From contig CAZSKK010000002.1 in the NCBI GenBank assembly GCA_964607415.1, positions 9,991-73,990 on the forward strand: a stretch of 64,000 nucleotides of DNA. Direction: 5' to 3'. The stretch comes from an uncultured Candidatus Saccharibacteria bacterium (GTDB lineage: Bacteria; Patescibacteriota; Dojkabacteria; J137). Below, piece by piece: positions 6,326 through 31,071 of this stretch (within the stretch, counting starts at the first letter, position 1; every line of letters begins with the position of its first letter). The notes under the pieces were generated by a model. It did no database searches, was not told the origin of the DNA, and was given only the letters and a program-made list of their open reading frames with translations. Both the position numbers and the translations under genes were made by a program.

Positions 6326-6949
6326 ATGAGTTATCTAGTACCAACAGTAATAGAAAGATCAAGAGAAGGTGAAAGAGCATACGATTTATATTCAAGATTA
6401 TTAAAAGATAGAATCATTTTTGTAGGAACAGCTATCGATGAAGGTGTTGCGAATGCAATCATTGCCCAGCTTTTATTTTTAGATAAAGAAGATCCAGAAA
6501 AAGACATAACAATGTATATTAACTGTCCTGGGGGGGTTATTTATTACGGGCTTGGGATTCTAGACACAATGAACCATATCAAAGCAGATGTCAGCACTGT
6601 AGTTGTCGGACTAGCTGCTTCTTTTGGTGCATTAATTGCAGCAAATGGAACTAAAGGTAAAAGATTTATATTGCCAAATGCAACAGTAATGATTCATCAA
6701 CCATGGTCAAGCGGAGGCGGAGGACAAGCAACAGACGTGGAAATAAGTGCTAAGGAAATATTAAGACAGAAGGATATTTTAAATAAAATTTTAGCTGAAA
6801 AAACTGGCCAAACATTGAATAAAATTGAAAAAGATGTGGATAGAGATAATTTTATGGATGCAAAGAAAGCACTTGAATATGGCTTAGTAGATAAGATAAT
6901 ACAGAAAGAAACATCAAGTTCAAAAAAAACAAGTTCGCATAAGGGTTAA
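6326..6949 (+). CDS. clpP: ATP-dependent Clp protease proteolytic subunit ClpP, with Lys/Ser-rich C-terminal tail
   Basis: [32 protein letters not shown] (catalytic Ser) and MIHQP (His) motifs. Confidence 0.9.
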
Positions 6950-7031
6950 TTAGTGAAAATGCAAACGGTTAATTCGTAGCACAAATCATCGAACTAATTA
7001 ACTGATAAACCAATTAACCTGTAACTTTTAT

Positions 7032-7104
7032 GAGCACTTAGCTCAGCTGGTAGAGCAAACGCTTGACGTGCGTTAGGTCATAGGTTCGATCCCTATAGTG
7101 CTCA
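7032..7104 (+). tRNA. tRNA-Val (anticodon GAC)
   Basis: Cloverleaf: acceptor GAGCACT/AGTGCTC, D arm GCTCAGCTGGTAGAGC, anticodon stem AACGC/GCGTT with loop TTGACGT, T arm GGTTCGATCC; CCA not encoded. Confidence 0.85.
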
Positions 7105-7267
7105 AATTAACCAATTAAGATTAACGGAAACAAATCACTAATTAACCCATCGATTTTAGTGCTATAATTTTTTAGATTTTGAGTAATTAGCCAAGTGATA
7201 AAACTATTAACTATTGGCTATAAGCTAACTCAAAAGCTATAACACATAACATAAACCTGGTTTATAT

Positions 7268-8824
7268 ATGGCACAAATAATTCCCATTTCAGATGAAGTT
7301 AAGCACTCTGCTGCACATGTTCTAGCTCTTGCAGTAAAAAGACAATTCCCAGACGTAAAAATAGGAATTGGTCCCGTCACTAAAGAAGGCTTCTACTATG
7401 ATTTTGATATAGGTAGAAGATTTACAGAAGAAGAAAAGAAAGCAATAGAAACCAATATTATGCAAATCGTTAAAGAAGATTTACCTTTTTCTCAGTTTTA
7501 TCTGAACAAAGAGAAGGCAATAACAATGCTTTTACAAAACGGTCAAGGCTACAAAGCTGAACTTGTGAAATCTATACCAGACGAAGAAATTAGCTTTTTT
7601 AAGGTCGGTGATGAATTCACCGATCTATGCAGAGGTCCTCATTTAAAATCTACTGGATATCTTGGCATTATTCAGATAGATAAAATAACAGAAACACATT
7701 GGAAAGAGGATCCTAAAAGACCTAAAATGGAAAGAATTCATGGTGTAGTATTTAGAAATGCAGAAGAAGCAGTAAACTTTCACAATGCAAAGTTAGAAGA
7801 GAAGTCTAGAGACTTCAAAAAAATCTCAGAAACTTCAAAGCTTGGTTTTGTGGTTGGGAAAGATTTGTATTTTACAAACCGTGGAACGTCAGTCCAAAGG
7901 CAAATTGAGAAGATTATTGTCGCTGAAATTAAAGGCAACAAGCTTGCCGATGAGATAACAGTACCAACTCAAAAAAGTGTAGAGGAAATAACTGGAAGTG
8001 TAGATTCTTATCTATCTTCTAACAACCATAGTTACAAAGATTTTCCCAGATATTTTTTTATAAGAACAAATGTAAAGTCAAAAGTAAAAAATGAAATAGA
8101 AGAAGGAAAAGCAATCATTTTTTTAAATTATCTAAAAGCAACAGATGCAGCCACCGAGCTTGGCAAAGCCATTGAAAATACAATCGGTATATTTAAGCAA
8201 TTTAATCTGGAGATTTTTGGCGAAATTCTTTGCAGCAACCTAGATGATCCTTATTTAGAAAGCATTTCAAATATTTTGAAAGGTAATCTTATTTCACACA
8301 ACAAGGTTTTAACTAAAAATAGAAACGATATTTCATTAATTCTGAAGGTAAAAGACTCAATTTCAAGAGATTGGAATTTATGTGTCATAAACTTAAGAAG
8401 TGAAAATACACCTAGATATATAAATGATGTAAACAATTCACAAAACACGGTTGTATTAGAGAATATATTTCCTATTTTAAATATTTACGGATACTTTATT
8501 GAAAATTTTGAAGGTGAATTGCCTCTTATTTTGAAACCAGTAAAAGTTAAGTGTATTCCTTTAACCAAAAAACAACATGAATATGCTAAGGAAATCTTAA
8601 GAAAAGTTATAGATCTTGGGTATTCAGCGGAAATTGATTTGAGGGCTAATAGTATGCAAGAAAAAATTAAAGACGCAGAGAATGAGGGAATTCCTATCAT
8701 TCTTGTGCTGGGTAATAAAGAAGCTGTTAACCAAGCAGTTTCAATAAGGCAAAACAGTATAGAAGTTGGATTAATAAGCCTTGATAATTTTAAAGACTAC
8801 CTCGCAGAAAATCTAAATTACTAA
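7268..8824 (+). CDS. thrS: threonyl-tRNA synthetase homologue (no TGS domain; editing and anticodon-binding domains conserved; catalytic core highly divergent, class II motifs not recognisable)
   Basis: HSAAHVLALAV + DLCRGPH (editing-domain HxxxH/CxxxH), RDFKKI hinge and a C-terminal class IIa anticodon-binding domain, all alignable to E. coli ThrRS by eye. The 210-aa middle lacks CPGH, the motif 2 FRNE...R...F and the motif 3 GSxERFIG Arg. Canonical position upstream of infC-rpmI-rplT. Confidence 0.7.
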   Translation: MAQIIPISDEVKHSAAHVLALAVKRQFPDVKIGIGPVTKEGFYYDFDIGRRFTEEEKKAIETNIMQIVKEDLPFSQFYLNKEKAITMLLQNGQGYKAELVKSIPDEEISFFKVGDEFTDLCRGPHLKSTGYLGIIQIDKITETHWKEDPKRPKMERIHGVVFRNAEEAVNFHNAKLEEKSRDFKKISETSKLGFVVGKDLYFTNRGTSVQRQIEKIIVAEIKGNKLADEITVPTQKSVEEITGSVDSYLSSNNHSYKDFPRYFFIRTNVKSKVKNEIEEGKAIIFLNYLKATDAATELGKAIENTIGIFKQFNLEIFGEILCSNLDDPYLESISNILKGNLISHNKVLTKNRNDISLILKVKDSISRDWNLCVINLRSENTPRYINDVNNSQNTVVLENIFPILNIYGYFIENFEGELPLILKPVKVKCIPLTKKQHEYAKEILRKVIDLGYSAEIDLRANSMQEKIKDAENEGIPIILVLGNKEAVNQAVSIRQNSIEVGLISLDNFKDYLAENLNY

Positions 8825-8967
8825 AGAAAATCCCATTGTGATTAAAAAACTAATGTGATATTATTACTATGCTTTTTAAGTATTAGAACTGTTTTCGTAT
8901 AAAAAAATACAATTATTACAAGCCGAAAGCTCCGCAAATAAGAAATTTTAAAAATGAAGAGATCCGA

Positions 8968-9483
8968 ATGCCTAAATTACGGGTTATTGATGAATCCGGT
9001 GAAAATTTAGGTATTTTATCAAGGGACGAAGCATTAAACCTAGCACGCGAAAGAGAATTAGATCTTGTATTAATCGCATCCAATTTAGAAATTCCAGTTG
9101 CAAAAATAATTGACTGGTCTAAATTTAAGTACGAAAAAAGTAAAAAAGCAAGACAATCTAAATCAAAGACAGAAGAAACAAAAGAGTGGTGGTTTAATCC
9201 AAATATAGGTGACCGTGACTTGGAAATCAGATTAAATAAAATCAAAGAGTTTATAGAAAAAGGTGGCAAAGCTAAACTTACTGTTAGATCTAGAAGGAGG
9301 GTATCTCCAGGACAAGTTGCAGAGGCCCTAGATAGAATTGTAAAATTTAGTGAAGGATTTGCAGAGCCTGTATCAGAAAAGCTTAGAGAAGGAAGAAATA
9401 TGGCAATTTACATAAAAATAAAGAAAAATAACACAAAAAAGAATTTAACTGTTGAGGAAACAAACAATGAAAACAAAGATTAA
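8968..9483 (+). CDS. infC: translation initiation factor IF-3
   Basis: LRVIDESGENLGILSRDEALNLARERELDLVLIA... is the typical IF3 N- and C-domain sequence. Confidence 0.9.
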   Translation: MPKLRVIDESGENLGILSRDEALNLARERELDLVLIASNLEIPVAKIIDWSKFKYEKSKKARQSKSKTEETKEWWFNPNIGDRDLEIRLNKIKEFIEKGGKAKLTVRSRRRVSPGQVAEALDRIVKFSEGFAEPVSEKLREGRNMAIYIKIKKNNTKKNLTVEETNNENKD

Positions 9484-9673
9484 AACACACAAAGCAAGTA
9501 AAAAAAGATTCAGAATAACAGGCAAAGGCAAAGTTGTTAGAGACAAACAAAGAATTAGAAATAGTTCACACTTAAAAAATAAAAGAAAATCTACTAGAAA
9601 ACTTATTCCAGAAAACCTTGGGTTAAGTTCTCAAAAAGAGTCTAAAAAAATTAAAAGATTATTAAATAACTAA
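9467..9673 (+). CDS. rpmI: 50S ribosomal protein L35
   Basis: MKTKIKTHKASKKRFRITGKGK; GAGGAAA Shine-Dalgarno 7 nt upstream of the ATG at 9467 (the ORF-track start at 9452 is probably too early). Confidence 0.85.
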   Translation: MKTKIKTHKASKKRFRITGKGKVVRDKQRIRNSSHLKNKRKSTRKLIPENLGLSSQKESKKIKRLLNN

Positions 9674-9675
9674 AC

Positions 9676-10020
9676 ATGAGAGTAAAAAGAGGCCAGAACA
9701 AAAAAGCTAAACATAAAAAAGTTCTAAAACAAACAAAAGGATATAGACTATCATATAGCAAACTATATAGGAGAGCTAAGGAAGCATCGGGACATGCAGG
9801 TAGCTATAACTATGCACATAGATTAAGAAGAAAATCGCAAAAAAAAGAAGAATGGATAAAAACTATTTCTGCGGAGCTTTATAATCATGGAATTTCTTAC
9901 AGCAAATTCAGTAAAATGCTTAACGACAAGAAAGTAATTATCGATAAAAAAAACTTGGCAGAAATGATCGTAACAAGACCAGAAAGCTTCAAGATACTTG
10001 TTGAAACAGTTACTAAATAA
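9676..10020 (+). CDS. rplT: 50S ribosomal protein L20
   Basis: MRVKRGQNKKAKHKKVLKQTKGY...GISYSKF matches the L20 consensus. Confidence 0.9.
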   Translation: MRVKRGQNKKAKHKKVLKQTKGYRLSYSKLYRRAKEASGHAGSYNYAHRLRRKSQKKEEWIKTISAELYNHGISYSKFSKMLNDKKVIIDKKNLAEMIVTRPESFKILVETVTK

Positions 10021-10037
10021 TAAGTTAAAGAGATTAA

Positions 10038-10068
10038 AACAGGAGGAATTATTCCTCCTGTTTTTTAT
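10038..10068. terminator. Rho-independent terminator after rplT (could act bidirectionally with the convergent PBP gene)
   Basis: AACAGGAGGAA-TTA-TTCCTCCTGTT stem followed by TTTTTTATT. Confidence 0.8.
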
Positions 10069-10087: not shown

Positions 10088-13000
10088 TTAGTTTATTGTA
10101 ATATTGCCACTATTGGGTGATCTTAATGTACCTGTATTGCCCACTGACACAAACACTACAAATGCGTATATGTCACCAACTTGCCTATCAGAAGGCGGCG
10201 TCCATGAATAGCTGTAAACATTTCCTATTTGATTCATATTTCCTGGCAATAGAGTTGTTGTAGTATTTCCGGCTCTAGTCCTAAGCTGATAAATTTGTGC
10301 AGTACCTACTGCATTAGGACCAGAATAAGTTACTGTAACAGCCTGATCTGGTAGTGAAGCAGGAGTTGCAGGTAAACTTGAAGGAAGTGGTCCAAAAGAA
10401 AGGTTTGAAGAAACCTCAGCACCTATTATAACTCTTATGTCTTGATTCCTTGTTAATGAGTTACTATCGCTAGCAGACAATCTTAAAGTATAAGTTCCAT
10501 TCTCTAAATTCAAAGACGCAATATTAAATGTCACATCGAAGTTAGAATATGTGGTTGAAGTACCAATTGGTAATCCATCAAGATAAAAACTAAGACTTGT
10601 TATATTTCCACTGGTAGTAAATACACTTCCACGAATATTTATATTGTTGCCAGAAATAACCTGGTTTGCAGTAGGAGCCTGAACAGAGAAGAAAGGACCA
10701 GGTGTTCCGGAACTTCTATCTATATTACATTGTTCTGTAGGGATTATATTTTGCTTAACGGTAGGATCTTCAGCACTTTTACCGCTGATGTAAGCATCTA
10801 AAAAATTCTGCCATCCAGCTACAGGGCTCTTATAATAAGTAAATTCTACTTCTTCAGCAAAACCTAGTGTTCTGTCTACATCTCTTGCAAGCCTGTCTCT
10901 TTGATCCCTGCAAACAGTAGCCCTTGTTCTTATGATTGTTCTTTCTGGATTCCTATCAACTATCATCCAGTTTCTTTCAAAACCTTGGCATTCTCCCGCG
11001 TCATTACAATCACCACCACCTTCATATACAAATCCCGGTCTATTTGTATCCCAAGATGTCTTGGCAGAGAAGTAAGGAGCTTCTCCTACATCTCTCATGT
11101 AATTTTTAACCCATGGTATTACAGTTGTTATTGGGAATGCTGCATTTGGATTCATTGGATAGTTGTTGTTATTTCCTACCCATCCAACAGTCACAAAATC
11201 AGGTGAATATGCCACAAACCAGTTATCCTTGTTGTCTTCTGATGTTCCTGTTTTACCAGATAAATCTCTTTGATCCCAGGAAAATCCATCAAGATTTTTT
11301 AATGATTGATTTAGAAGGTATACTCCTTGCGCATCTGCTACAGATTTTCTTTGCGGATTTGCTTGATATACTACATTTCCATCTTTATCTTCTATTTTTA
11401 AAATTGGGTCAAGCTGAACAAAGTCACCACCATTTGCAAATACACCGAAAGCCTGTGCATGTTCAACTGGATATACAGAAGTACCTCCAAGGATTACTGA
11501 GTGACCATAATCTTCATTATATGTGGTGTAGCCGAATTCTCGAGCTGTATTAACATAATTTTGAACACCAACCAATTCTACAACTTGTATAGCTGGAAGG
11601 TTTCTAGAATCTCTTAGCGCTTGCTGTGCAGTGTAGTTAATACCATTAAAGGTTCCATTCCAGTTTTTCGGACTATAACCTCCAATTTGAATAGGAATGT
11701 CTGGCAAGAAACTTCCTGGGAATAGCTTTCCTTCTTTGTAAGCCATATAATAACCCAATGGTTTATTTGTTGATCCAGGAGATTGTAGTGTTGTTAGAAC
11801 ATTAACTTGCGGATTGTATAGACAGTTTGCACCGTTACCGTCACAACCTTCACTAGTACCATAAAAGTCTTTAGACCCAACCATCGAAATGATTTGTCCA
11901 TTGCTTGGCGTTGTAGTTACAACGGCTGCATTATAAACATCCCAGTACGTGTAATCATTTCCAGCTCTTCTTACATAATCTTCTGCAATTCTTTGAATGT
12001 TATAGTCTAAAGAAGTATAGATCTTGTAGCCTCCAGAACCTAATTCAGCGTTTGTAAAAGGCTCCTGACCATTTTTGTAGTTTCTAGTTGTTAGTTGAGT
12101 TAGAACGTAGTCAACAAAGTGGCCGGCTTTTTTGTCAGTTGCAATAGGTGGTTTATATGCAAGTTCTTGATTTCTTGCTTCTTCAAGCATCTCCTTCGTA
12201 ATTACATCGTCCATTTCAGGATCATCGTAATTCTTTCTAGTTTGATCATTGATTTTTCCTAGATTATTTTCTAATTGGCCAAGAATATATAACTGTCTTT
12301 CCTTAACTTTAGCTTGAGCAGTTTCAGGATCAGGTAGGCCTTTTGTAGGTGAAAGCCTTGAAGGATTTTGAATAATAGCAGCTAAAATTGCTCCTTCTGC
12401 TAATGTTAAATCTTTTGGATCTTTATCAAAATAGAATTGTGAAGCTGTATTAATACCATAAATGGTTGCTCCAAAAGGTGCAACTTGCAAATACATTTGC
12501 AAAATATCGTCCTTAGAGTTTGATTGCTCAACTTTAATAGAAAGAAGAACTTCTTTTATTTTTCTTTCAATTTTTACCTCACTTTGTTTAGTTGTGATTT
12601 TCACCAACTGCTGGGTAATTGTACTTCCTCCACAAACATTATTTGAATCTTTTACATAGTTAACTCCACAACGCAGAATAGCTGCAGGGTCAAATCCTTT
12701 ATGTTCATAAAATGATTCGTCTTCTGCTGCAATAAATGCCCATTTTACGTACTCAGGAATTTCTTCGATATTTACAGGGTCGCTATTATATTGTTCATCG
12801 ATTTGTCTATATAATAAAGTGCCCTTACCATCTCCTTGCTCTAGCTCGTTTCTATCATAAATTTCACTTGCTACTGGGATCTCGGGAAAAACTGCATCTG
12901 TTGTTGGAATTTCTTTATTAAGTCTCTGAAGCCATGAAAATAGCAATAATCCAATAATTGCTCCAGCTACAATAAATACTGTAGCCAAAACTAGAGCAAT

Positions 13001-13168
13001 TTTTTTTAACCGTTTTGATACTTTTTTACTAAGCTTAAATTTTTTAGAAGATCTAACTCTTGATTTATTTAAATTGCTTTTTGCTATAGCAAGCCTAGCA
13101 TTGCTAGAAGAGTACAGTGATTTACTTCGTGTTTTCTTTGTATTTAATGATGTTTTCTTTGTTTTCAT
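10088..13168 (-). CDS. class A penicillin-binding protein (glycosyltransferase + transpeptidase) with ~300-aa Ser/Thr/Asn-rich beta-rich C-terminal extension
   Basis: EDESFYEHKGFD...GGSTITQQLVK (GT51 motifs), STNK and SGKTGT (transpeptidase SxxK/KTG), N-terminal TM anchor. ATG at 13168 preferred over the TTG at 13183. Confidence 0.85.
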   Translation of the reverse strand: MKTKKTSLNTKKTRSKSLYSSSNARLAIAKSNLNKSRVRSSKKFKLSKKVSKRLKKIALVLATVFIVAGAIIGLLLFSWLQRLNKEIPTTDAVFPEIPVASEIYDRNELEQGDGKGTLLYRQIDEQYNSDPVNIEEIPEYVKWAFIAAEDESFYEHKGFDPAAILRCGVNYVKDSNNVCGGSTITQQLVKITTKQSEVKIERKIKEVLLSIKVEQSNSKDDILQMYLQVAPFGATIYGINTASQFYFDKDPKDLTLAEGAILAAIIQNPSRLSPTKGLPDPETAQAKVKERQLYILGQLENNLGKINDQTRKNYDDPEMDDVITKEMLEEARNQELAYKPPIATDKKAGHFVDYVLTQLTTRNYKNGQEPFTNAELGSGGYKIYTSLDYNIQRIAEDYVRRAGNDYTYWDVYNAAVVTTTPSNGQIISMVGSKDFYGTSEGCDGNGANCLYNPQVNVLTTLQSPGSTNKPLGYYMAYKEGKLFPGSFLPDIPIQIGGYSPKNWNGTFNGINYTAQQALRDSRNLPAIQVVELVGVQNYVNTAREFGYTTYNEDYGHSVILGGTSVYPVEHAQAFGVFANGGDFVQLDPILKIEDKDGNVVYQANPQRKSVADAQGVYLLNQSLKNLDGFSWDQRDLSGKTGTSEDNKDNWFVAYSPDFVTVGWVGNNNNYPMNPNAAFPITTVIPWVKNYMRDVGEAPYFSAKTSWDTNRPGFVYEGGGDCNDAGECQGFERNWMIVDRNPERTIIRTRATVCRDQRDRLARDVDRTLGFAEEVEFTYYKSPVAGWQNFLDAYISGKSAEDPTVKQNIIPTEQCNIDRSSGTPGPFFSVQAPTANQVISGNNINIRGSVFTTSGNITSLSFYLDGLPIGTSTTYSNFDVTFNIASLNLENGTYTLRLSASDSNSLTRNQDIRVIIGAEVSSNLSFGPLPSSLPATPASLPDQAVTVTYSGPNAVGTAQIYQLRTRAGNTTTTLLPGNMNQIGNVYSYSWTPPSDRQVGDIYAFVVFVSVGNTGTLRSPNSGNITIN

Positions 13169-13316
13169 ATATAAAACTATCAATTAATCCTGTAAATATT
13201 TGCGCTTCTTTATTAAAGTACAAAAAAGTGTACACTTGGATCTAAGCGCATAAAATAGTATACAATAAGATAGACTTAAGTGTAAGAAAAAGTTCAAGTT
13301 CGAAATCTTTACTGAT

Positions 13317-14987: not shown

Positions 14988-16987
14988 ATTTAATGCAACT
15001 GACTGACTCTGTAACTACGCTAAAACAAATAAGTAGTTCGTACGAACAGTTACTTAATAAACTAGAAATTAAATCTTTAAAAGATTTACTTACATACTTC
15101 CCAAGAAAGTACGAAAACGCTACAGCGATAGATCAAATTAGCGATATATTTTTAGAGCCAAACGAAAAGAAAGATTATATTCTAAAAGTAAATGTTTTGA
15201 AATTCACGAATGCTTACCTAAGAAGCAGGAAGACATTACAGCGGGCAGAACTAAATGATAATTCCGGGTCAATTAAAGCCATGTGGTTTAATCAACCGTA
15301 TTTGGAACAGGCATTAAAAGGAAATGCAAAATTTCTCATGAAAGGAAGAATCAGATCCAAAGGAAAGACTATAACCTTTTATCCTAATATTTACGAACCA
15401 ATAATTGAAGATAGAGAGAATGTACACCTGGGAAGGATAGTTCCAGAGTATTCATTAACGGAAGGTGTGAGTAGAAAATGGTTTAGGAATAGAATTAAAT
15501 ATCTAATCGACAACATCGACAGCATAGATATACCTAATGAACTTGCTTACTTTATTGATGATAAGACATTAAAACAATCAATCGCTCAGCTACACTTTCC
15601 TGAAAGCTTTGATGCCGTTAAGCTTGCGGAACAAAAACTTTCTTTAATGGAACTTACAAATATTCAGCTTCAATTAGAAGAAAAACGGCTCAGAAATAAA
15701 AAATTTAAAGCACCAATCATTGGTAAAGAAAATGAAGAACTGATTGACAACTTTATAAAAAGATTACCTTATGATTTAACTTCAGACCAAAGCAGTATCA
15801 TTACACACCTAGTTAAAAAAATAGAAGCTAGACAACTTCTTAATGAATTAATTCAAGGAGATGTAGGATCCGGTAAAACTATTGTTGCGGCAATTGTAGC
15901 TTTAGTAGTTGCAAATTCTGGCTATCAAGTTGCGATTTTCACACCCACAACTATTCTTGCCAAACAACATTTCAAGACATTTACTGAACTTTTTAGCCAA
16001 AACCCAGATATAAAAATCGAGTTTATAACTTCAGAGAATAAAAAGACAAAAGATGCCGATATTTTGATTGGTACATCAGCAATTTTGGCAAGAAAGACCA
16101 ATTTAATCAAAAATTTGGGTTGTGTGATTGTAGACGAACAGCATAAGTTTGGAGTTACACAAAGAGAAGAACTGCTAGAACCTTTTCAGCAATCAATAAA
16201 CACATCCCAGTTCCCACATTACATAAATATGACGGCAACTCCTATTCCCAGAACAATTGCACAAACATTTTTTGGTGATTTAGAAATATCCTCTATAAAA
16301 ACCAAACCTAAAGATAGAAAACCCGTGAAAACATTTCTAATAGAAGAAAAAAAGAGATTGGGGTGTCTAGAATGGATCGAAGAAGAAGTTAAAAAGGGCA
16401 ACCAAGCCTATTGGGTATGCCCACTTATATCTGAATCTGAAAAGCTAGAAATAGCTTCCGCTGAGGAAATTTATAAAAAACTTAAAAAATTAAAGAAAAA
16501 TATTAGATTCGGCCTTTTACATGGGCAAATGAAGCAAACTGAAAAATCAAAAATAATGAATAGCTTTGTAAGTGGAGAAATCGACATTTTGGTTTCAACA
16601 ACAGTTATTGAAGTGGGGGTTGACGTTCCAAACGCAACAATTATGGTTATCGAATCAGCTGAACGATTTGGATTGGCTCAGCTTCATCAAATCAGAGGAC
16701 GTGTTGGTAGGAGTGGCAAACAATCATGGTGCTTTTTGTTCCAAAGCAGTATTAGCCCTACAAGCAATGAACGTCTAACTTTTCTTGCAAACAATTTTGA
16801 TGGGAGTAAGATTGCTGAATTTGACCTAAAAACACGTGGACCTGGAGAAGTTTATGGTCAAAGACAAACAGGAGTACCTAATCTTAAAATTGCAAAACTA
16901 AACGATATTGAATTGATAAACAAAAGCAGAATCATTGCTGAAAAGTTGTATAATGATGGCGTTAGAAAAATCGAACTTTTTAGTTAA
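14981..16987 (+). CDS. recG: ATP-dependent DNA helicase RecG
   Basis: GDVGSGKT (Walker A), VVDEQH (DEQH box), helicase C motifs QLHQIRGRVGR; N-terminal wedge domain. Confidence 0.9.
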   Translation: MLDLMQLTDSVTTLKQISSSYEQLLNKLEIKSLKDLLTYFPRKYENATAIDQISDIFLEPNEKKDYILKVNVLKFTNAYLRSRKTLQRAELNDNSGSIKAMWFNQPYLEQALKGNAKFLMKGRIRSKGKTITFYPNIYEPIIEDRENVHLGRIVPEYSLTEGVSRKWFRNRIKYLIDNIDSIDIPNELAYFIDDKTLKQSIAQLHFPESFDAVKLAEQKLSLMELTNIQLQLEEKRLRNKKFKAPIIGKENEELIDNFIKRLPYDLTSDQSSIITHLVKKIEARQLLNELIQGDVGSGKTIVAAIVALVVANSGYQVAIFTPTTILAKQHFKTFTELFSQNPDIKIEFITSENKKTKDADILIGTSAILARKTNLIKNLGCVIVDEQHKFGVTQREELLEPFQQSINTSQFPHYINMTATPIPRTIAQTFFGDLEISSIKTKPKDRKPVKTFLIEEKKRLGCLEWIEEEVKKGNQAYWVCPLISESEKLEIASAEEIYKKLKKLKKNIRFGLLHGQMKQTEKSKIMNSFVSGEIDILVSTTVIEVGVDVPNATIMVIESAERFGLAQLHQIRGRVGRSGKQSWCFLFQSSISPTSNERLTFLANNFDGSKIAEFDLKTRGPGEVYGQRQTGVPNLKIAKLNDIELINKSRIIAEKLYNDGVRKIELFS

Positions 16988-16998
16988 GTTACTTACTT

Positions 16999-17841
16999 AT
17001 GAACATATTTCAAATCATTGTATTGGGTGCTGTCCAGGGCGCGACGGAGTTTATTCCGGTATCTAGTTCTGCGCACATTTTAATTTTTGAAAAGATTCTT
17101 GGTGTTTCTTCTGAGAATGAAAATTTAAATGCAATTAGTGTATTTTTACATCTTGGAACATTAATAGCTCTACTTTTATACTACAGATTAAGACTTAAAA
17201 CTTATGCATTAGATTTATTCAGCAAAGATAAGCAAAAGGCACGCACAACACTAAAACTTGTTTTTAAAATAGCAATTGCCTCAATTCCAATTGCCTTAGT
17301 AGGATTTCTTATTGAAAATAATCTGGATGAATTTTATGGAAAAGTTGAAAATCAGGACAAAGCATTGCTTTTAATTTCAACAACTCTTTTTTTATTTGGA
17401 CTATTATTTATTTTTAGCGAAAAACTTTTCAAAAATTCCAATAGCAAAATTACAGAATTAAAATATAAAAATTCTTTCTTTATTGGGCTTCTACAAATAC
17501 TGGCTTTAATATATGGGATTTCTAGATCTGGTTCTACAATAATAGCAGGAATGTTGAATGGGCTTAAAAAAGAAGAGGCCTTAGATTTTTCATTTTTGGT
17601 GAGTATCCCTGTAGTTGGCGGTGCAACAATTTATAAAACTTCCGAGTTAATTGTGAATAATTCTCTAACATCTACAGATGTGACCAACTATATAGCTGGA
17701 GTAGTAAGCTCGTTTGTGGTTGGATATTTTTCTATAAGTTTTCTTTTCAAATTTATAAAAACAAATAATCTAAAAATCTTTGGTATCTACAGAATTTTAC
17801 TATCTGCTGGTATAATTCTGATGTTGTTGTTTAATTTTTAA
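16999..17841 (+). CDS. uppP: undecaprenyl-diphosphatase UppP (BacA)
   Basis: GAVQGATEFIPVSSSAHIL at the N-terminus, 8-TM profile, …SRSGSTI motif. Confidence 0.85.
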   Translation: MNIFQIIVLGAVQGATEFIPVSSSAHILIFEKILGVSSENENLNAISVFLHLGTLIALLLYYRLRLKTYALDLFSKDKQKARTTLKLVFKIAIASIPIALVGFLIENNLDEFYGKVENQDKALLLISTTLFLFGLLFIFSEKLFKNSNSKITELKYKNSFFIGLLQILALIYGISRSGSTIIAGMLNGLKKEEALDFSFLVSIPVVGGATIYKTSELIVNNSLTSTDVTNYIAGVVSSFVVGYFSISFLFKFIKTNNLKIFGIYRILLSAGIILMLLFNF

Positions 17842-21087: not shown

Positions 21088-21837
21088 TTAATTAACAGTC
21101 TGCCTTGATTCTATATATTGTTTAACTTTTTCATCAATCTGAGCCGTTAATGGAATTCTTTTGTAAACAGTCTGCAATTCCTCAGAATCTTTATCACTAA
21201 ATTGATATTTTACAACTTGAATTTCGAACGACCAAGGTTTTTGTTCTATATTATTATAATCAGAGTCTGAAAAATTAAGCTTCATTTCTTTTACAACAAC
21301 AAAATCTTCAAGCTGATCTAAGGATTGCAAAAAATTCTTAATATTATTCAAAGTCCCATTCATTTTAAATTCAGATGGCACTTCCTGAAGCCCAACAACA
21401 CCTATATAATTATTTCCTCCTTCCGGTAGGTTTGATAGGTTAGGTTCTACCACTTCACTGAATCTCTGTGACGATATTTCAAGGTTACTTTTTAATGCTA
21501 GCGCTGTTATTCTATCTCTAAAATTTACAACCTCTGTTGTTCCACTTGGAGCAATACTATTTATAATACTTAATTGATCAAGAATAATCACAGATCTTGA
21601 TGAGATAGAAGATAACTGCGATAAAGTATTATTTTTTTCAGCAATTTGATTATTAAGTGTATTTATCTCATCTAATTCGGAAAAAATATCTGAAACCTTT
21701 GGAAATACAAACCCTACAATAATACCTATAAATACTATTACAGAAATTATGGGAATTATATAGAGTCTTAAAATCTTAATAAAATTTGAAGACTTTGTTT
21801 TTTTCTTCTTTTTTGATATTTCATCAATTTCACTCAT
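21088..21837 (-). CDS. pilO: type IV pilus assembly protein PilO-like
   Basis: N-terminal TM + coiled coil; last gene of the pilM-N-O triplet. Confidence 0.6.
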   Translation of the reverse strand: MSEIDEISKKKKKTKSSNFIKILRLYIIPIISVIVFIGIIVGFVFPKVSDIFSELDEINTLNNQIAEKNNTLSQLSSISSRSVIILDQLSIINSIAPSGTTEVVNFRDRITALALKSNLEISSQRFSEVVEPNLSNLPEGGNNYIGVVGLQEVPSEFKMNGTLNNIKNFLQSLDQLEDFVVVKEMKLNFSDSDYNNIEQKPWSFEIQVVKYQFSDKDSEELQTVYKRIPLTAQIDEKVKQYIESRQTVN

Positions 21838-22391
21838 ACATTATTAACTGTGAACGATATTGTAAGTCTTACGGTATTCTCTTCCTTGGATACTTGTCTT
21901 AAAAATATATCTTCTATGCCTGAAACGGCATTACCTTCTTCAATGATTTTAGCTGCTGTATCGTAATTTGAAGTAACTATTGTCAGGGCAAACTTTCCTG
22001 TACTTTCCCTACCATAAGAAATGATTTTTGAATTTGGATCAGAAGCAACTATTTTTGAAGTTGTATCTAAAAATTTAATTGCTTCAAAATCTGTCTCCAA
22101 AATAGGTCCTAGAGCTTGGGCTTTTACAAATAATTCCCCGTTTGTAGCTCTAATGGTATCAAAACTTGCTATTTGACTATCCTGTTTGGAAAGATCAGAT
22201 TTTAACTTATTAATTCTAGGCTTGATAAAAACCGTTTGAATTATACTTAGAATAAAAAAGATCAGTACAGCAAAGAAAATGAGAATAAAAGAGTAGAGTA
22301 TAGAATTATCTCTTTCTTGAATAATCACTATCTCTTCCTTTGATTTTGGAGGTATAAGATTAAATTTAAATAGTTTAGAATTATTTTCCAT
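21834..22391 (-). CDS. pilN: type IV pilus assembly protein PilN-like
   Basis: FNLIPPK motif (PilN INLLP-like) followed by a TM helix; overlaps pilO by 4 nt. Confidence 0.65.
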   Translation of the reverse strand: MENNSKLFKFNLIPPKSKEEIVIIQERDNSILYSFILIFFAVLIFFILSIIQTVFIKPRINKLKSDLSKQDSQIASFDTIRATNGELFVKAQALGPILETDFEAIKFLDTTSKIVASDPNSKIISYGRESTGKFALTIVTSNYDTAAKIIEEGNAVSGIEDIFLRQVSKEENTVRLTISFTVNNV

Positions 22392-22393
22392 AA

Positions 22394-23437
22394 TTAATCA
22401 TTTTCACTTTTTAGACCAAGGCCCATAGCTACAGAATAGCTATGTATATTAACCTGGTCTACTTCTTTTCTAACATTACCTGATAATGTAATGTTAGCAA
22501 GTGGATTTACCAGAGAAGCTTTTATATTGATTTCTTTACTCAGGTATTCATCCAGTTTAGGAAGTAATGCACCACCTCCTGTCAAAAATAAATTTTTTAT
22601 TTCTGATCCACTAACCCTTTCCTTAAAGTAAGTAAATGTTCTTGAGATTTCTGAAACAAGAATCTTCATTATTGGCTCAATAGACCTGGCAATTTTTCCA
22701 TCACCATTGCTAAAGTCCATACCAAAAGTTGTTTTGTATTTTTCTGCCTGGACATTATCTATACCAAAATCAGCAGCAATCACTTTAGTAAGTGCATTAG
22801 ATCCGGTGCTTATGCTTTGAGAAAATACAACAACACCGTTTCGTACCAAGATAATATTCGAACTTTCTGCGCCAAAATCTAATACCATCATGTCTTTTAT
22901 CTCCTTATTTGCAAACGCTACCATCCTTGCAATCGCTAATGCCTCTGTTTCGACAGCTAAAAGCGTTAGTGACGCTTTATCCATAACGGTCTTAAGATTT
23001 TCTATTAAAGATTTTGGCGCAGCAACAACATACCAATTAGCCATAGCTTTATCATCTATTTTTCTTTCATCTATTTGTAAAAAGGAAACATTCACATTTT
23101 CTAAAGGCACAGGAATCAAAGGCTTTAATGCCCAATGTACCGATTCGGAAACCTCCTCGTCTTTTACAACAGGTAATGTTAAGAGTCTAGAAAAAACTGA
23201 AACTTCTGGAACAGAAACAACGCAGTTCTTTGTATCAATTCCAGAAGCTTTATATGCCTTACCTAACTCGTTGGAAAGGGCAGTTAATCCTGCCTCAGAA
23301 TTATTATCTAAAATACCACCAAGTGTTGGCACAGACCCTATATCAATCAATTGAGCCTTATCTCCATTTCTTTTCAATTGAGCAAGTTTTATAGAATTAT
23401 GACCTAAATCAAGTCCGAAAAATTCTGGTATAGCCAT
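22394..23437 (-). CDS. pilM: type IV pilus assembly ATPase-fold protein PilM
   Basis: FGLDLGHNSIKLAQL actin-like fold N-terminus; 347 aa. Confidence 0.8.
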   Translation of the reverse strand: MAIPEFFGLDLGHNSIKLAQLKRNGDKAQLIDIGSVPTLGGILDNNSEAGLTALSNELGKAYKASGIDTKNCVVSVPEVSVFSRLLTLPVVKDEEVSESVHWALKPLIPVPLENVNVSFLQIDERKIDDKAMANWYVVAAPKSLIENLKTVMDKASLTLLAVETEALAIARMVAFANKEIKDMMVLDFGAESSNIILVRNGVVVFSQSISTGSNALTKVIAADFGIDNVQAEKYKTTFGMDFSNGDGKIARSIEPIMKILVSEISRTFTYFKERVSGSEIKNLFLTGGGALLPKLDEYLSKEINIKASLVNPLANITLSGNVRKEVDQVNIHSYSVAMGLGLKSEND

Positions 23438-23553
23438 ATATGAAAAGTTACAAAAGTTAAAATGTTATAAAGTCTTTAAGATTTTAAGTTTAACGCTTTA
23501 ACGTTAAAACCTTACAACCTTAAAACTCAGCCATTATCATTCTACACAATCCT

Positions 23554-24510
23554 TCAGTTTGTATCTACTGAATCATTTGTTATGAAGCTATGATCAAATA
23601 CACTATCTACCTGTGGGAAAAGAGGAATTTGGGTAATAACTCTTGCAACAGGGCTTGCTGTATCGCTTGGATCAAATGAAACTGATTCAAATTGTCGTAT
23701 TTGGTAAGGGAAATTCCCGGGGTTTGTTGAAAGCACATCCAAGTCTATACTTCCATAAGTTTCTCTTGTTCTTACTGTTATTCGTAAAGATACTGTCGTA
23801 TGAGAAGCGTTCCAACCATCAAAAGTTGAAATATTAAAAGACACAGTATTATCAGTATCAGAAACATTGTTAACAGTAAAATTAAAAGGATGAATTGGAT
23901 TCAAATTATCGTATGGATTATCAGAGGCTAATGAAGTATAAACTTGATCCATATCAAAAACATCTTTTATAACTCTGTATTCGCCAGCAGGTCCTAAGTT
24001 TCTATAAATTAAGCTGAAGTCTAATGCTACTTCTGATCCAGTCCAACTAAAGTTAAGCCCTTGATTGTACCCATTTAAGTTTAAAACAAGGCTTTGATCT
24101 TTATTTATAGTATAGCCATCAACGTCTCTCGTGTCCGAAATTGTCATTTCTGTAAATAAGTTAGCTTCAGTTAAATCTATATTTGTAAATGTACACCTGT
24201 ATTGGTTTGAGTTCGTGGAAACGTTGCCCTGTGAACATGTTCCAGTAGCGGCCGAATTAAAGTCATTCGGAAGTGTGCTTAAAGAAGTTGTATAATCACC
24301 ATATTTTCTTATTATATTTAAAATGTTTGATTCAGAAACATTTAAAGCTTGCTCATACTTCTCAGTGTTTACAACTTCCAGAGTATCTCTTCTGGTTAAT
24401 ACAACAATACTGACAACTATAATACCCAAAATCATCAATACCAAAAGCGTAATTAGCATTATCTGTCCATTGAGTTTCTCTTGCTTTTTGTTATTTTTAT
24501 TTATTTTCAT
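23554..24510 (-). CDS. putative pilus-associated minor pilin (PilX-like) lacking a canonical prepilin motif
   Basis: Basic N-terminus, then a hydrophobic helix (GQIMLITLLVLMILGIIVVSIVVL) and a Ser/Thr/Asn-rich beta-rich body; position matches other T4P operons. Confidence 0.4.
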   Translation of the reverse strand: MKINKNNKKQEKLNGQIMLITLLVLMILGIIVVSIVVLTRRDTLEVVNTEKYEQALNVSESNILNIIRKYGDYTTSLSTLPNDFNSAATGTCSQGNVSTNSNQYRCTFTNIDLTEANLFTEMTISDTRDVDGYTINKDQSLVLNLNGYNQGLNFSWTGSEVALDFSLIYRNLGPAGEYRVIKDVFDMDQVYTSLASDNPYDNLNPIHPFNFTVNNVSDTDNTVSFNISTFDGWNASHTTVSLRITVRTRETYGSIDLDVLSTNPGNFPYQIRQFESVSFDPSDTASPVARVITQIPLFPQVDSVFDHSFITNDSVDTN

Positions 24511-24528
24511 TTTAATCTGTAATCTTAT

Positions 24529-25068
24529 TTATAGTGTATAGTTTCTAGTTGAAATAGTTACTTGTCTTACAACGTTAGTAATGTTTAATCTCTCATTGCT
24601 ATGATTCCCAACAACAGTAAACAATATATTCCCTTTTCTAGGATCAGTCAAAGTTGCAACACCTCTTTCAAATGAGAAAGTAGTGACGCTTAGAACTGGT
24701 GATGTTTGAAAACTTTGGGCGCTTGATCCAGAAACAGAGTCTATTACATTTCTACAAACTGCATTGCCACATTGTGCCCAGGAAATCCTTTCTCCGTTTA
24801 CAACTAGATCACAGCTTTGGGTGCTGCCACTATCACCACAGTTTAAAATAATATCTGCATTTCTTACATCTCTGGATATTAAAGTTGTAACCTCACCTAT
24901 TTCTTCTCTGACAATACTTCTCGATAAGGTTTTGTTTGTAACTTGAATTGCAATGATTAATGCATTAAAAAGAATTGTTAAAATTACTCCTATTATTGCA
25001 AGGCTTATGATTACTTCCGCTAAAGAATATGCTCTTTTCTTTTTTTTATTGGTTAAGTTTTTTGTCAT
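24529..25068 (-). CDS. pseudopilin (type IV prepilin-like)
   Basis: KRAYSLAEVIISLAIIGVIL: class III signal with Glu at +5. Confidence 0.7.
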   Translation of the reverse strand: MTKNLTNKKKKRAYSLAEVIISLAIIGVILTILFNALIIAIQVTNKTLSRSIVREEIGEVTTLISRDVRNADIILNCGDSGSTQSCDLVVNGERISWAQCGNAVCRNVIDSVSGSSAQSFQTSPVLSVTTFSFERGVATLTDPRKGNILFTVVGNHSNERLNITNVVRQVTISTRNYTL

Positions 25069-25069
25069 G

Positions 25070-25594
25070 TTATCTTAAAATGAAACTATCTTTTCTATAA
25101 CCTGTAACACTATTTATAATAGTTTCACCTTCAAGTTGATAAACTATTTTAGAAGTTATTGCATAAATACTTTGATCCAAGGTATTTTGAGGCGTGATCT
25201 CTATAACTAGACAAACGTTAATATTCTGTGCCTGTGATCCTTGAGTTAAATCGGTTATATAAGGACTTTGTGAATCACAACTATTTGCAGTTGAGCTTTC
25301 ACGCCTTAATGTATATTGATTATTCTGATTTTGGATACTAAAAAAGTAAACTTGCCCATTGACAGTGTTTACAAGAGAAGTATCCGAAACATAAATATCA
25401 GCAGGTGATTTTGCAATCTCCAGTGCCTTTACCATAACTCCATTTGCAGTATCTTCTATTTCATTATTTTTAATCGTTGCCAATGCTTTAACCACAAGAG
25501 TAGTAGAAGCAATCACTGTAGTTGATATTATTGCTAAAATAATTAGTACTTCAGCAAGACTTGTAGCTTTCTTTTTTTTCTGCATAATAATCAA
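25070..25594 (-). CDS. pseudopilin (type IV prepilin-like)
   Basis: KKATSLAEVLIILAII prepilin signal with E+5. Confidence 0.7.
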   Translation of the reverse strand: MIIMQKKKKATSLAEVLIILAIISTTVIASTTLVVKALATIKNNEIEDTANGVMVKALEIAKSPADIYVSDTSLVNTVNGQVYFFSIQNQNNQYTLRRESSTANSCDSQSPYITDLTQGSQAQNINVCLVIEITPQNTLDQSIYAITSKIVYQLEGETIINSVTGYRKDSFILR

Positions 25595-26130
25595 TTTAAT
25601 TGGAGTGTATCATTATCCGCATTTACAATTATGCTTCTTAAATCTCCTAAGGATGTTTGCGTTAATCTTATTGTGCAAGAACCTGTTGGATCTGCAGTAA
25701 ACAACGCACCATTTGTTTGGACTAAATCAATGTTACCAGTTAGCCTTTCAAATGCAATTCCTATACAACCTTCGATTTGAAGCTGCACACCTGAAGGCAT
25801 TATCACACTTTCCTGTTGACTTAAAGTAGAACAATTTAAACGATCAGATAGAACCATACAGTCAAAAAAATCATATGAATTATTTTCAACTCTTAGAGTG
25901 TATAAGTCAGGTACTGCATTAGGAATATCACTTGATATGGCTGAACTAGCAACTGAGTTTTTTGCTTTATTTTGTAAACTCTTTAAAGAAGAAACTAGTT
26001 CGTTATACGAAGTAGTAAGTTGTGTGTAGTTTCTGAATCGAATTAACGCAATTGTGCCAAGGCCAAAAAGAAAGGCTATAACTCCAAGTACAACCATTAT
26101 TTCGAGCAAGGTGAAAGCTTTTTTATTCAT
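25591..26130 (-). CDS. pseudopilin (type IV prepilin-like)
   Basis: KKAFTLLEIMVVLGVIAFL prepilin signal. Confidence 0.75.
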   Translation of the reverse strand: MNKKAFTLLEIMVVLGVIAFLFGLGTIALIRFRNYTQLTTSYNELVSSLKSLQNKAKNSVASSAISSDIPNAVPDLYTLRVENNSYDFFDCMVLSDRLNCSTLSQQESVIMPSGVQLQIEGCIGIAFERLTGNIDLVQTNGALFTADPTGSCTIRLTQTSLGDLRSIIVNADNDTLQLN

Positions 26131-26189
26131 ATTTGTAATCAGAGATTTACTAATACCAGTTTATATTCTAATCTAACATAATTCAAGAA

Positions 26190-27002
26190 CTAGGTAAGCC
26201 AAACAAAGTTTATAAAATCTTCCCCGAAGCCAATAACTATCAAGAATCCTAAAAAAATAAAAGGAACTAAGGGCACTAAAACATCTCTAAATTTCTTGAC
26301 TAACATAGCTAAAATTAGCGAAAATACTCCCCCTGTAAGTAAAGTAAAGAAAATTGATATAAGTGAATAAGGCCAGCCTAAAGATAGACCAACTATTCCC
26401 ATAATATCAACATCGCCTTCACCAAGTCCTTTTTCTTTAGAAACTTTAACTAAAATGTATGTTACTGCCCAAAAAATCAAACCGATTAAAAGATTATCCA
26501 CTTGGCCAAGTTCAACATTTTTAAAAATTAAATCACCTGATAACTGGAAAGAAAAAAATCTAACTGATACAACAAATAGATTTGAAAAGCCTACAAACAT
26601 TAGAAAAAGCTTTACAACATTTGTTGGAATAGAGTAGCACAAGGAATCAAATATAGAAAGGTAAAGAAAAAATATGTAACTAGCTATAAAAAAAATCAAA
26701 ATCACAAGAATCTCCTCTATTTTTAAATTTTCGATACTTCTAAGATACCTCTCTAAACTAACAATCAAAAGAAAGGAGCTGATAAGTCCTAACAGCTGAA
26801 TAAAAACAAGTCTCAAATGTTTCTTAAAATCAATTTTTTTATAATAAATAACTTGCAAATAAAAAGGTAAAAAAATTGAGCGAATTAAATCCCCTTGCAG
26901 CATATTAAATCTATAAATTTTTTCTTGTTTATCTATAAAAAACAAAAAAAGATTTGAAAGAACAGATCCAGTATATAGAAAAATCAAGGAGACAATAATC
27001 AC
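26190..27002 (-). CDS. pilD: prepilin peptidase (A24 family) PilD
   Basis: Polytopic membrane protein with FDSLCYSIP (first Asp) and GLGEGDVDIMGIVGLSLGW (GxGDVKL-like second Asp motif). Confidence 0.8.
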   Translation of the reverse strand: MIIVSLIFLYTGSVLSNLFLFFIDKQEKIYRFNMLQGDLIRSIFLPFYLQVIYYKKIDFKKHLRLVFIQLLGLISSFLLIVSLERYLRSIENLKIEEILVILIFFIASYIFFLYLSIFDSLCYSIPTNVVKLFLMFVGFSNLFVVSVRFFSFQLSGDLIFKNVELGQVDNLLIGLIFWAVTYILVKVSKEKGLGEGDVDIMGIVGLSLGWPYSLISIFFTLLTGGVFSLILAMLVKKFRDVLVPLVPFIFLGFLIVIGFGEDFINFVWLT

Positions 27003-27021
27003 TTAAGAAAAAGTTAATAAT

Positions 27022-27438
27022 TTAATTCCAATTTGAAATAGGAGGACATTCATCTGTGCCTAAACTTTTTATTTCATTCGACTCAAGTTGTATACAAAAA
27101 ATAAAACCATTTGCACTTTTATTATAAAAATACTTGGTTCCATTGGAACTAGTGATACTTGCAGGCTGAGTAAATCCAGAGAACGTATAATAAGTCCTGT
27201 TATCAATTCTAAAAGTTGATGGATTAAACTCTACGTTAACTTTTTGTGGGTAAGACAAGGTTACCCTTGTATACCTATTTATTTGATTTACTATTTCAGC
27301 CCCTACAGTAAGCCGTTTTTTATCTCTTGAGTTTTTTTGCAAAATAGATGCGCCATAAAGGCCTAGCAGCAAAAGAACTGCAATAATCACCAAGGTCACC
27401 ATTATTTCTATTAAAGTAAAAGCTCCCTTTTTCCTCAT
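27022..27438 (-). CDS. type IV pilin
   Basis: MRKKGAFTLIEIMVTLVIIAVLL; start moved to the Met just before the prepilin signal. Confidence 0.75.
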   Translation of the reverse strand: MRKKGAFTLIEIMVTLVIIAVLLLLGLYGASILQKNSRDKKRLTVGAEIVNQINRYTRVTLSYPQKVNVEFNPSTFRIDNRTYYTFSGFTQPASITSSNGTKYFYNKSANGFIFCIQLESNEIKSLGTDECPPISNWN

Positions 27439-27521
27439 AAAAAAATTATATAGTATATAAACAAAAACTGGTAGGTTTGAGCCATTCCTCAAAACCTACC
27501 AGTTTTAAAATTTCAATAGTT

Positions 27522-27977
27522 TTAATTAACTGCAACTGGAGTTGTACAATTTGGAAGGCTAGGCTCTCCAAGTTGAAGGCCCCATAGACTTCCTTCTAAA
27601 TCAACGGAAAGTTTGTATGATCCAGCATTAACAGAGTAACAATATCTTGTATATGTTGAGTTAACTGCGCTTGTAGTATTCTGAGGTACAGTTGCACCTG
27701 TAAATCTATAAACTACCTGACTATTTATTTCGACTCTGTCCGAATAAAATCTAATACCTGCTGCGGTATTGTAGGCTGGATAATTAGCTGTAGCTTCAAA
27801 GTATTGTTGAATAGCCAAATTAATATCATCAGCAGCTTTTCTTCTAGAAGTATTTCTTAAAGATCTTTGAACAAGTGAAATACCGTAAATGGACATTGCA
27901 GCAAGAATTGCAATAACTCCCATTGCTACCATAAGTTCCAAAAGAGTAAAACCTTTTTTTGTTTTATTTTTTCTCAT
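27522..27977 (-). CDS. type IV pilin (probable major pilin)
   Basis: KKGFTLLELMVAMGVIAILAA: canonical G/FTLLE prepilin signal; adjacent to pilC. Confidence 0.8.
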   Translation of the reverse strand: MRKNKTKKGFTLLELMVAMGVIAILAAMSIYGISLVQRSLRNTSRRKAADDINLAIQQYFEATANYPAYNTAAGIRFYSDRVEINSQVVYRFTGATVPQNTTSAVNSTYTRYCYSVNAGSYKLSVDLEGSLWGLQLGEPSLPNCTTPVAVN

Positions 27978-28016
27978 TATTAAAAATTAAAAAATACAAA
28001 TTTAAGAACTTACTTT

Positions 28017-29246: not shown

Positions 29247-29274
29247 ATATAAAAAATGCTTTTACATCTTACTT

Positions 29275-29355
29275 CTCCTGAAAATGCACATTATGCATTC
29301 AAATGCAGTTAATTTAGTTACACTCAACAGCACAACATGCTGTCTCAGGATGAGG
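29275..29355. repeat. copy A of an ~80-nt structured intergenic repeat (two covarying hairpins), between pilT and pilC
   Basis: CTCCTGAAAATGCACATTATGCATT...ACAGCACAACATGCTGTCTCAGGATGAGG; matches 53074-53152 and 62235-62335. Confidence 0.75.
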
Positions 29356-29382
29356 TTTTAAGTTAAATTCTTTTTTTATGTT

Positions 29383-29456: not shown

Positions 29457-29497
29457 TGAGATACTCTTGATTCTTAATTTCCCTTGAATCATTCTGT

Positions 29498-30982: not shown

Positions 30983-31071
30983 TTTCTTAATTTAAAAATT
31001 CGGACACTTAAGTTTAGATCAAATTTTAAATCTATGCAATTTAAGAATAAACTCCTTTTGACTCATTGCCA

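Follow-up and report, generated by a model that had tools for sequence, protein, structure and literature searches.

The 64,000-nucleotide stretch of contig CAZSKK010000002.1 (assembly GCA_964607415.1) analysed here, hereafter the window, carries at its thrS-infC-rpmI-rplT locus a gene for a 518-amino acid (aa) protein derived from threonyl-tRNA synthetase (ThrRS). We propose that this protein is probably a tRNA-Thr-specific deacylase that edits in trans, a role to which its intact editing and anticodon-binding domains and its ruined catalytic core point. The gene is a degenerated positional orthologue of thrS found in a large clade of Candidatus Dojkabacteria. Its parts, all on the + strand, are as follows.

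7268..8824, + strand: the whole open reading frame (ORF) of the 518-aa ThrRS-derived pseudo-synthetase, from an ATG start to a stop codon at 8822-8824
7268..7762, + strand: N2-type editing domain, residues 1-165, with no TGS/N1 domain ahead of it (Pfam tRNA_SAD; alignment with S. aureus ThrRS)
7304..7318, + strand: HxxxH editing motif, H13/H17 corresponding to E. coli H73/H77 (invariance in the alignment)
7622..7642, + strand: DxCRGPH editing motif, D119/C121/H125 corresponding to E. coli D180/C182/H186 (invariance in the alignment)
7808..8524, + strand: degenerate class II core, residues 181-419 (no match to PF00587; hhalign; residue table; structure model)
8030..8047, + strand: motif 1 remnant, S255-Y256...P260 (column conservation in the family)
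8480..8503, + strand: NIYGYFIE, aligned with the motif 3 sequence GSxERFIG, with S517 replaced by P and R520 by N (alignment)
8525..8821, + strand: class IIa anticodon-binding domain (ABD), residues 420-518 (Pfam HGTP_anticodon, 9.8e-15; invariant columns; hhalign register)

The only Pfam matches in the ORF were tRNA_SAD (residues 110-157) and HGTP_anticodon (residues 427-514). The tRNA-synt_2b profile (PF00587) gave no match in the protein even at E <= 1, and the thrS equivalog model TIGR00418 scored 191.9 bits, about half of its cut-off of 383.65, which was thus not reached. When the protein was compared with PDB sequences by phmmer, residues 10-220 aligned with residues 72-284 of S. aureus ThrRS and residues 405-497 with residues 526-619, leaving the middle unaligned; both editing motifs, H13xxxH17 and D119-L-C-R-G-P-H125, were found. 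An earlier note on this DNA had described a ThrRS homologue at the thrS-infC-rpmI-rplT locus, with an N-terminal editing domain bearing the HxxxH and DxCRGPH motifs and a C-terminal class IIa ABD. The ORF lies exactly at 7268..8824 on the + strand with infC, rpmI and rplT downstream, the phmmer alignment and the two Pfam matches recover both domains, and the profile search for the tRNA-synt_2b core that the note had proposed as a check came back empty. The note had also listed the TGS domain as missing. It is indeed absent, but this is not peculiar to the protein, as fully canonical ThrRSs of Dojkabacteria and of other candidate phyla radiation (CPR) members (584-593 aa) are likewise TGS-less; the loss is a lineage trait.

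To describe the state of the core, thirteen positions of the synthetic site were tabulated in E. coli numbering (C334, R363, E365, R375, Q381, D383, H385, Y462, K465, Q484, H511, S517 and R520). Following established structural work on ThrRS, we take C334, H385 and H511 to be the Zn ligands, R363, E365 and R375 to be the motif 2 residues, and S517 and R520 to be those of motif 3. The 518-aa protein retains 0/13 of these residues in both MAFFT and hhalign alignments; 51 short members of its family retain 0-2, and canonical matches 11-13, nearly all of them the full set. At the Zn-ligand positions C334, H385 and H511 the protein shows a gap, a gap and E, and hhalign recovered none of the ligands. 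The motif 2 residues R363/E365/R375 have become S/K/L, and R520 of motif 3 has become N. Deletions have removed the loop bearing C334 (~29 aa), 8 aa inside motif 2 and further segments, so that the span from the conserved RD to the proline of FPxWLxP measures 239 aa as compared with 292-302 aa in canonical enzymes. These results bear out the degenerate core of the earlier note, in which no recognisable Zn site, motif 2 or motif 3 arginine had been seen and NIYGYFIE had been read at the position of SMERFIG (in our alignment, (L)NIYGYFIE stands opposite GSMERFIG). Its estimate that the core is ~90 aa short was too high, the measured shortfall being 53-63 aa. Motif 1, the dimer-interface motif of class II synthetases, has kept its proline (P260); S255 and P260 are present in at least 90% of the family and Y256 in at least 80%.

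The same picture was obtained at the level of the family. SAD and ABD were matched in 51/51 members and tRNA-synt_2b in 0/51 (E <= 0.01). A profile of these 51 proteins nevertheless aligned by hhalign with one of 25 canonical ThrRSs over its full length (100% probability, E 1e-107), the columns for motif 2, motif 3 and the Zn ligands being unconserved in the degenerate family. An AlphaFold2 (AF2) model, for which the family alignment served as input, had a mean predicted local distance difference test score (pLDDT) of 93.5 and kept the antiparallel class II core sheet; its best Foldseek matches were bacterial ThrRS structures (top TMq 0.78, E. coli ThrRS 1qf6). The structure prediction with inspection of the Zn ligands that the earlier note had suggested has given a retained ThrRS fold, with the ligands absent from the alignments. 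Judged from these alignments and this model, the middle region is still a ThrRS-type class II fold, but without an active site, and the protein most likely no longer aminoacylates.

Could the protein nonetheless still be the cell's ThrRS, its active site so radically rebuilt that it does without Zn? It occupies the canonical thrS position, its class II fold persists, and a second ThrRS turned up neither in the window, nor in ~200 kb of related loci, nor among the matches listed in our searches (see below). Such an enzyme would, however, have to function with 0/13 of the tabulated residues, the universal class II arginines of motif 2 and motif 3 being among those lost. Deletions have taken out the Zn loop together with part of motif 2, and nowhere in the family are these parts regained; moreover, conservation is lowest in the core (24% identity), where the few positions that are kept belong to motif 1 or are structural. 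The absent arginines and this low conservation make an active remodelled ThrRS very unlikely in our view.

The editing domain tells a different story from the core. The residues equivalent to E. coli H73, H77, K156, D180, C182 and H186 are all present (6/6) in the 518-aa protein, as H13, H17, K96, D119, C121 and H125. Roles in editing by E. coli ThrRS have been described for H73 and H77 (PMC3592468) and for C182 and H186 (PMC4787780). The six residues were unchanged in all 120 matches listed of our first search and present in nearly all of the ~70 degenerate cluster representatives described below. In the ABD, residues I467, P476, G482, E485 and R494 correspond to the canonical invariant positions I582, P591, G597, E600 and R609, and all five are conserved or invariant across the degenerate family. 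Mean pairwise identity within the short family was 57% for the editing domain, 37% for the ABD and 24% for the core. When compared with an 83%-identical orthologue (locus L091), the rate of non-synonymous substitution (dN) amounted to 0.05 for the editing domain, 0.095 for the ABD and 0.12-0.15 for the core; the synonymous rate (dS) was saturated. Since dN is low while dS is saturated, purifying selection acts on every domain, the dead core included.

These measurements refute the idea that the gene is a decaying, functionless pseudogene, to which a degenerate catalytic core with several deletions might otherwise have led: dN is far below dS in every domain, the ORF is intact in more than 70 clusters, the fold is predicted with the pLDDT of 93.5 given above, and almost every member keeps its editing and ABD residues. 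We give this possibility next to no weight. The conserved residues also bear on a second proposal, in which the protein would be a non-enzymatic binder of tRNA or mRNA, either a regulator of infC-rpmI-rplT translation, a factor that sequesters tRNA-Thr, or a scaffold serving as a subunit of another synthetase. In E. coli, ThrRS uses its ABD and core to regulate its own mRNA, and the gene is apparently co-transcribed with infC, rpmI and rplT, no terminator being found ahead of position 10036. A pure binder, however, would need none of H13, H17, K96, D119, C121 and H125, which have stayed unchanged in nearly all of ~70 divergent clusters, and Rfam shows no leader or T-box RNA. A purely regulatory or structural role thus seems improbable to us.

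The extent of the family was determined by a profile search over 1.84 billion representative proteins, with clustering at 50% identity. The short form (about 500-527 aa) made up about 34 clusters, and longer intermediates (549-594 aa), which keep 0-10 of the 13 catalytic residues, about 35. A recurrence in ~70 clusters puts the degenerate pattern far beyond chance. Wherever any source attached an organism name to a degenerate member, that name was Candidatus Dojkabacteria, which is also the label of the closest protein relatives of the window (CPR/Patescibacteria). The labels of the proteins themselves vary between sources, from 'threonine--tRNA ligase' to 'His/Gly/Thr/Pro-type tRNA ligase C-terminal domain-containing protein' and 'hypothetical'.

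Five degenerate members were examined in other genomes, of which two are complete or near-complete, and all five sit in the canonical thrS slot. The gene order MurA/MurB/MutL/DUF192/ClpP/X/infC/rpmI/rplT/PBP1, where X is the degenerate gene, was found in the genome AP024679.1 (GCA_025999215.1; 862 kb), in the contig BOLA01000001.1 (GCA_016861265.1; 1.11 Mb) and in a 112-kb JGI contig. The slot ClpP/thrS/infC/rpmI/rplT is held by the intermediates P0066 and P0061, and also by the fully canonical (13/13) Dojkabacteria ThrRSs P0052 and P0134. Because a canonical Dojkabacteria ThrRS fills the same slot, the window gene is a positional orthologue of thrS, and the label of paralogue under which the earlier note had considered it does not hold.

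Within the class, the number of retained catalytic residues forms a graded series, from 13/13 through 10, 9, 7 and 5 down to 0/13. In a neighbour-joining tree, a weak method, the degenerate and canonical forms were interleaved, which suggests that decay took place more than once. The Zn-ligand cysteine was gone in every tabulated degenerate representative, including the forms with 10/13 and 9/13, in which the ATP-binding residues are still kept; from these sequences, loss of this cysteine appears to be the first step of the decay series. Four intermediates at the thrS locus, P0066 (L003 6001-7776), P0269, P0288 and P0268, keep all their ATP-binding and motif 2/3 residues (R363, E365, R375, S517 and R520) and carry substitutions at Zn- and threonine-binding positions (C334T, D383A and Q484H in P0066 and P0269; C334N and H511Y in P0288). 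P0066 and P0269 are forms with 10/13. They may represent either the first decay step or an altered amino acid specificity.

How might such a protein act? In the role of trans-editing deacylase that we favour, the ABD would still recognise tRNA-Thr, and the shrunken class II core would serve as a rigid, dimerising spacer that sets the distance between the N2 and anticodon-binding domains. The N2 domain would hydrolyse Ser-tRNA-Thr let go by a separate ThrRS that lacks editing activity or edits poorly. The working form would be a homodimer, or possibly a heterodimer with the catalytic ThrRS. We infer each of these elements, that is, the deacylase activity, its substrate, dimerisation, and both the existence and the type of the partner ThrRS. 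Between the two options left by the earlier note, a fast-evolving but active ThrRS or an editing-only protein in a cell that obtains threonylation from another enzyme, the retained editing and ABD residues and the purifying selection fit the latter, and the active form is strongly disfavoured.

The hydrolase could also be bound to tRNA-Thr and have another target or purpose; it might, for example, strip tRNA-Thr of Ala, Gly, Cys or D-amino acids, or deacylate Thr-tRNA-Thr in a regulated manner. The editing pocket and the ABD would be conserved in this case too, yet the substrate cannot be read from the sequence, and an additional target would explain why the gene is retained if a separate ThrRS already edits serine. 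On the other hand, all six residues with which E. coli ThrRS acts on Ser-tRNA-Thr are unchanged, and we saw no sign of remodelling of the editing pocket. We therefore regard another target as unlikely, and hydrolysis of Ser-tRNA-Thr as the probable activity.

Precedents for such a trans-editing deacylase can be found in both archaea and bacteria. ThrRS-ed, the editing half of a divided ThrRS, combines a synthetase remnant with an ABD, and a non-catalytic synthetase remnant followed by an ABD is likewise present in the 518-aa protein. Several crenarchaea split their ThrRS in this way into ThrRS-cat and ThrRS-ed, of which the latter edits in trans (PMC3592468; PMC7373986). Like ThrRS-ed of Sulfolobus and Aeropyrum, the 518-aa protein is derived from a ThrRS, has kept its editing and anticodon-binding domains and is predicted not to aminoacylate; its action in trans would be a further likeness. 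The editing domains differ, that of ThrRS-ed being of the archaeal, DTD-like type whereas the 518-aa protein has the unrelated bacterial N2/AlaX-like domain (HxxxH...CxxxH). The ThrRS-ed model NF011500 matched the ABD only (residues 413-496, 28 bits against a cut-off of 362). The two are convergent and not members of one homologous family. Moreover, the catalytic partner is known in crenarchaea, whereas in Dojkabacteria it is only implied.

A closer relative in terms of domain type is T1 of Anabaena, a bacterial-type ThrRS whose synthetic site can be dead for want of Zn. The mutant T1-SYY, which lacks the active-site Zn and is inactive in synthesis, edits fully and clears in trans the Ser-tRNA-Thr made by the editing-poor T2, with which apo-T1 can heterodimerise (PMC4787780). 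Trans-editing was demonstrated there and is proposed here. Inactivity of T1 is conditional on Zn loss or engineered, and the wild type is a full ThrRS; in the present family the inactivation is genetic, complete (0/13 plus deletions) and fixed in the clade. With canonical bacterial ThrRSs, including the TGS-less P0052 and P0134, the protein has its locus, N2 domain, class II fold and ABD in common; it differs from them in that its Zn ligands and the residues of motifs 2 and 3 are missing, in its core being 53-63 aa shorter and in falling below the NCBIfam and Pfam thresholds. The free-standing AlaX editors have a homologous editing fold with HxxxH and CxxxH-type motifs and act in trans (PMC7373986), as the 518-aa protein may do; they consist, however, of the editing domain alone and act on Ser-tRNA-Ala, whereas the 518-aa protein has a core remnant and an ABD, and it scored 30 bits with the AlaXM model NF040865 (cut-off 300). 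A 236-aa AlaX-like free-standing editor (tRNA-synt_2c and SAD) was seen directly 3' of pheT at 16776-17486 of locus L096, which belongs to another genome with a canonical thrS-infC-rplT-pheST locus. Full-text searches for Dojkabacteria ThrRS, ThrRS-ed/ThrRS-cat, CPR trans-editing and the genome accessions found no published description of this family of degenerate ThrRSs.

Several observations weigh against assigning a trans-editing function. It is from residue conservation that we infer the deacylase activity, and C182 is itself replaced in a few cluster representatives (by D in P0255 and by G in P0281). The need for editing in trans would also be unclear if the real ThrRS carries an editing domain of its own. 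Lastly, the proteins of the window contain threonine, and therefore some enzyme must charge tRNA-Thr; candidates for it did not come to light. Pfam searches of the ORFs of at least 300 aa, together with two shorter ones, gave no second ThrRS in the 64-kb window. By tblastn, no partner ThrRS was detected in ~200 kb of related Dojkabacteria loci, using as queries a canonical core and an archaeal-type ThrRS sequence, the latter verified only by its matches to PDB entries for ThrRS. We also took the core and ABD of the canonical P0052 as a query against 5.8 billion proteins, and no close bacterial-type paralogue was present, among the matches listed, on the long contigs that carry a degenerate copy (862,240, 1,114,243 and 1,149,470 bp).

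Among the matches listed, this last search returned canonical orthologues from other lineages only. A scan of genome contigs with family patterns that match every bacterial ThrRS (F[ITV]DLCRGPH and similar) brought up no Dojkabacteria among the matches listed. Individual candidates for a second copy were rejected: P0131 and P0154 are short because they are cut by contig ends; P0070, which is canonical but lies away from the infC locus, groups with Firmicutes-like sequences by neighbour-joining and shares no neighbouring genes with Dojkabacteria; and P0120 is merely the thrS-infC orthologue of another lineage. P0097 and P0024, whose contigs are almost equal in length (112,414 and 112,416 bp), lie on distinct contigs of distinct organisms.

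These searches leave room for a more radical explanation, namely that these Dojkabacteria may encode no conventional ThrRS and that an unrecognised enzyme or route would charge tRNA-Thr. This concerns the complete genomes of 0.86-1.1 Mb with only the dead copy at the thrS locus. Charging might then fall to a class II synthetase that was recruited or re-specified, or to a ThrRS-cat that has diverged strongly, and the 518-aa protein would be the dedicated proofreader of an error-prone charging system. We consider this a long shot. Dojkabacteria do replace synthetases by horizontal transfer: an archaeal-type TyrRS and tRNA-Tyr identity have been reported for them (PMC5370408), and the Dojkabacteria tRNA-Tyr that we observed at 1937-2012 of locus L002, which is 76 nt in length and has no long variable arm, fits both.

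The surroundings of the gene in the window (GC ~32%) are the following.

6326-6949: ClpP gene, upstream of the ORF
7031-7105, + strand: tRNA-Val(GAC), immediately upstream of the ORF
8899..9483, + strand: infC (Pfam IF3_N and IF3_C; putative start codon)
9452..9673, + strand: rpmI, encoding L35 (Pfam)
9676..10020, + strand: rplT, encoding L20 (Pfam)
10036..10064, no strand assigned: strong hairpin resembling a bidirectional terminator (consensus scan only)

In each Dojkabacteria locus that we examined, canonical or degenerate, a tRNA-Val(GAC) gene stands between clpP and the gene at the thrS locus; this position is shared with L001, L002, L003, L004, L005, L008, L091 and L095, mostly directly 5' of the thrS-locus gene. 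Between the ORF and rplT, the consensus scan gave no + strand site resembling a terminator. As the sole + strand hairpin of the region sits after rplT, the ORF, infC, rpmI and rplT are suggested to form one operon. The hairpin at 10036-10064 has a 13-bp perfect stem flanked by A and T runs and could terminate transcription in both directions between rplT and a convergent 1031-aa PBP1-like gene (10088-13183). An extended -10-like sequence, TGCTATAAT, is found at 7160-7168, ~100 nt 5' of the ORF start and past the tRNA-Val gene; for want of a match to a -35 hexamer, it was not called by the consensus scan. The Rfam search revealed no T-box or leader RNA, and no tRNA-Thr gene was present in any fetched locus.

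The ATG-delimited ORF of infC begins at 8968, and the in-frame translation upstream of it is IF3-like and reads ...APQIRNFKNEEIRMPKLRVID. This IF3-like sequence, ...APQIRNFKNEEIR-MPKLRVID, runs in frame 5' of the first infC ATG back to a stop codon at 8884-8886. Because it extends upstream of the ATG, infC probably has a non-canonical start, most plausibly ATA at 8899-8901; a non-canonical start codon is usual for bacterial infC. Other genes of the window encode MurB, MutL, PBP1, RecG, GyrB/GyrA, RuvB and DnaB, and a type IV pilus cluster is also present. This cluster, which resembles type IV pilus and type II secretion systems, occupies 21088-32931 on the - strand, with several small ORFs interspersed among the following genes.

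22394-23437, - strand: PilM-like
26190-27002, - strand: prepilin peptidase-like
28017-29246, - strand: PilC/T2SSF
29498-30982 and 31072-32931, - strand: two T2SSE ATPases

If our assignment is true, the archaeal division into ThrRS-ed and ThrRS-cat would have in the 518-aa protein its first counterpart of bacterial type (with an N2 domain), and this protein would be a natural, clade-wide version of the behaviour of Anabaena T1 that was shown conditionally and with an engineered mutant. Trans-editing factors derived from synthetases are already known; the new aspect is a natural pseudo-synthetase that spans a clade and sits at an essential locus. The finding also exposes an annotation trap, since labels such as 'threonine--tRNA ligase' make these genomes seem complete for ThrRS although the gene at the thrS locus most likely cannot charge tRNA. 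It thereby raises a testable question, namely by which enzyme tRNA-Thr is charged in such reduced genomes of the CPR. The graded series of Dojkabacteria would then constitute a rare natural record of an aminoacyl-tRNA synthetase decaying into a trans-editing factor.

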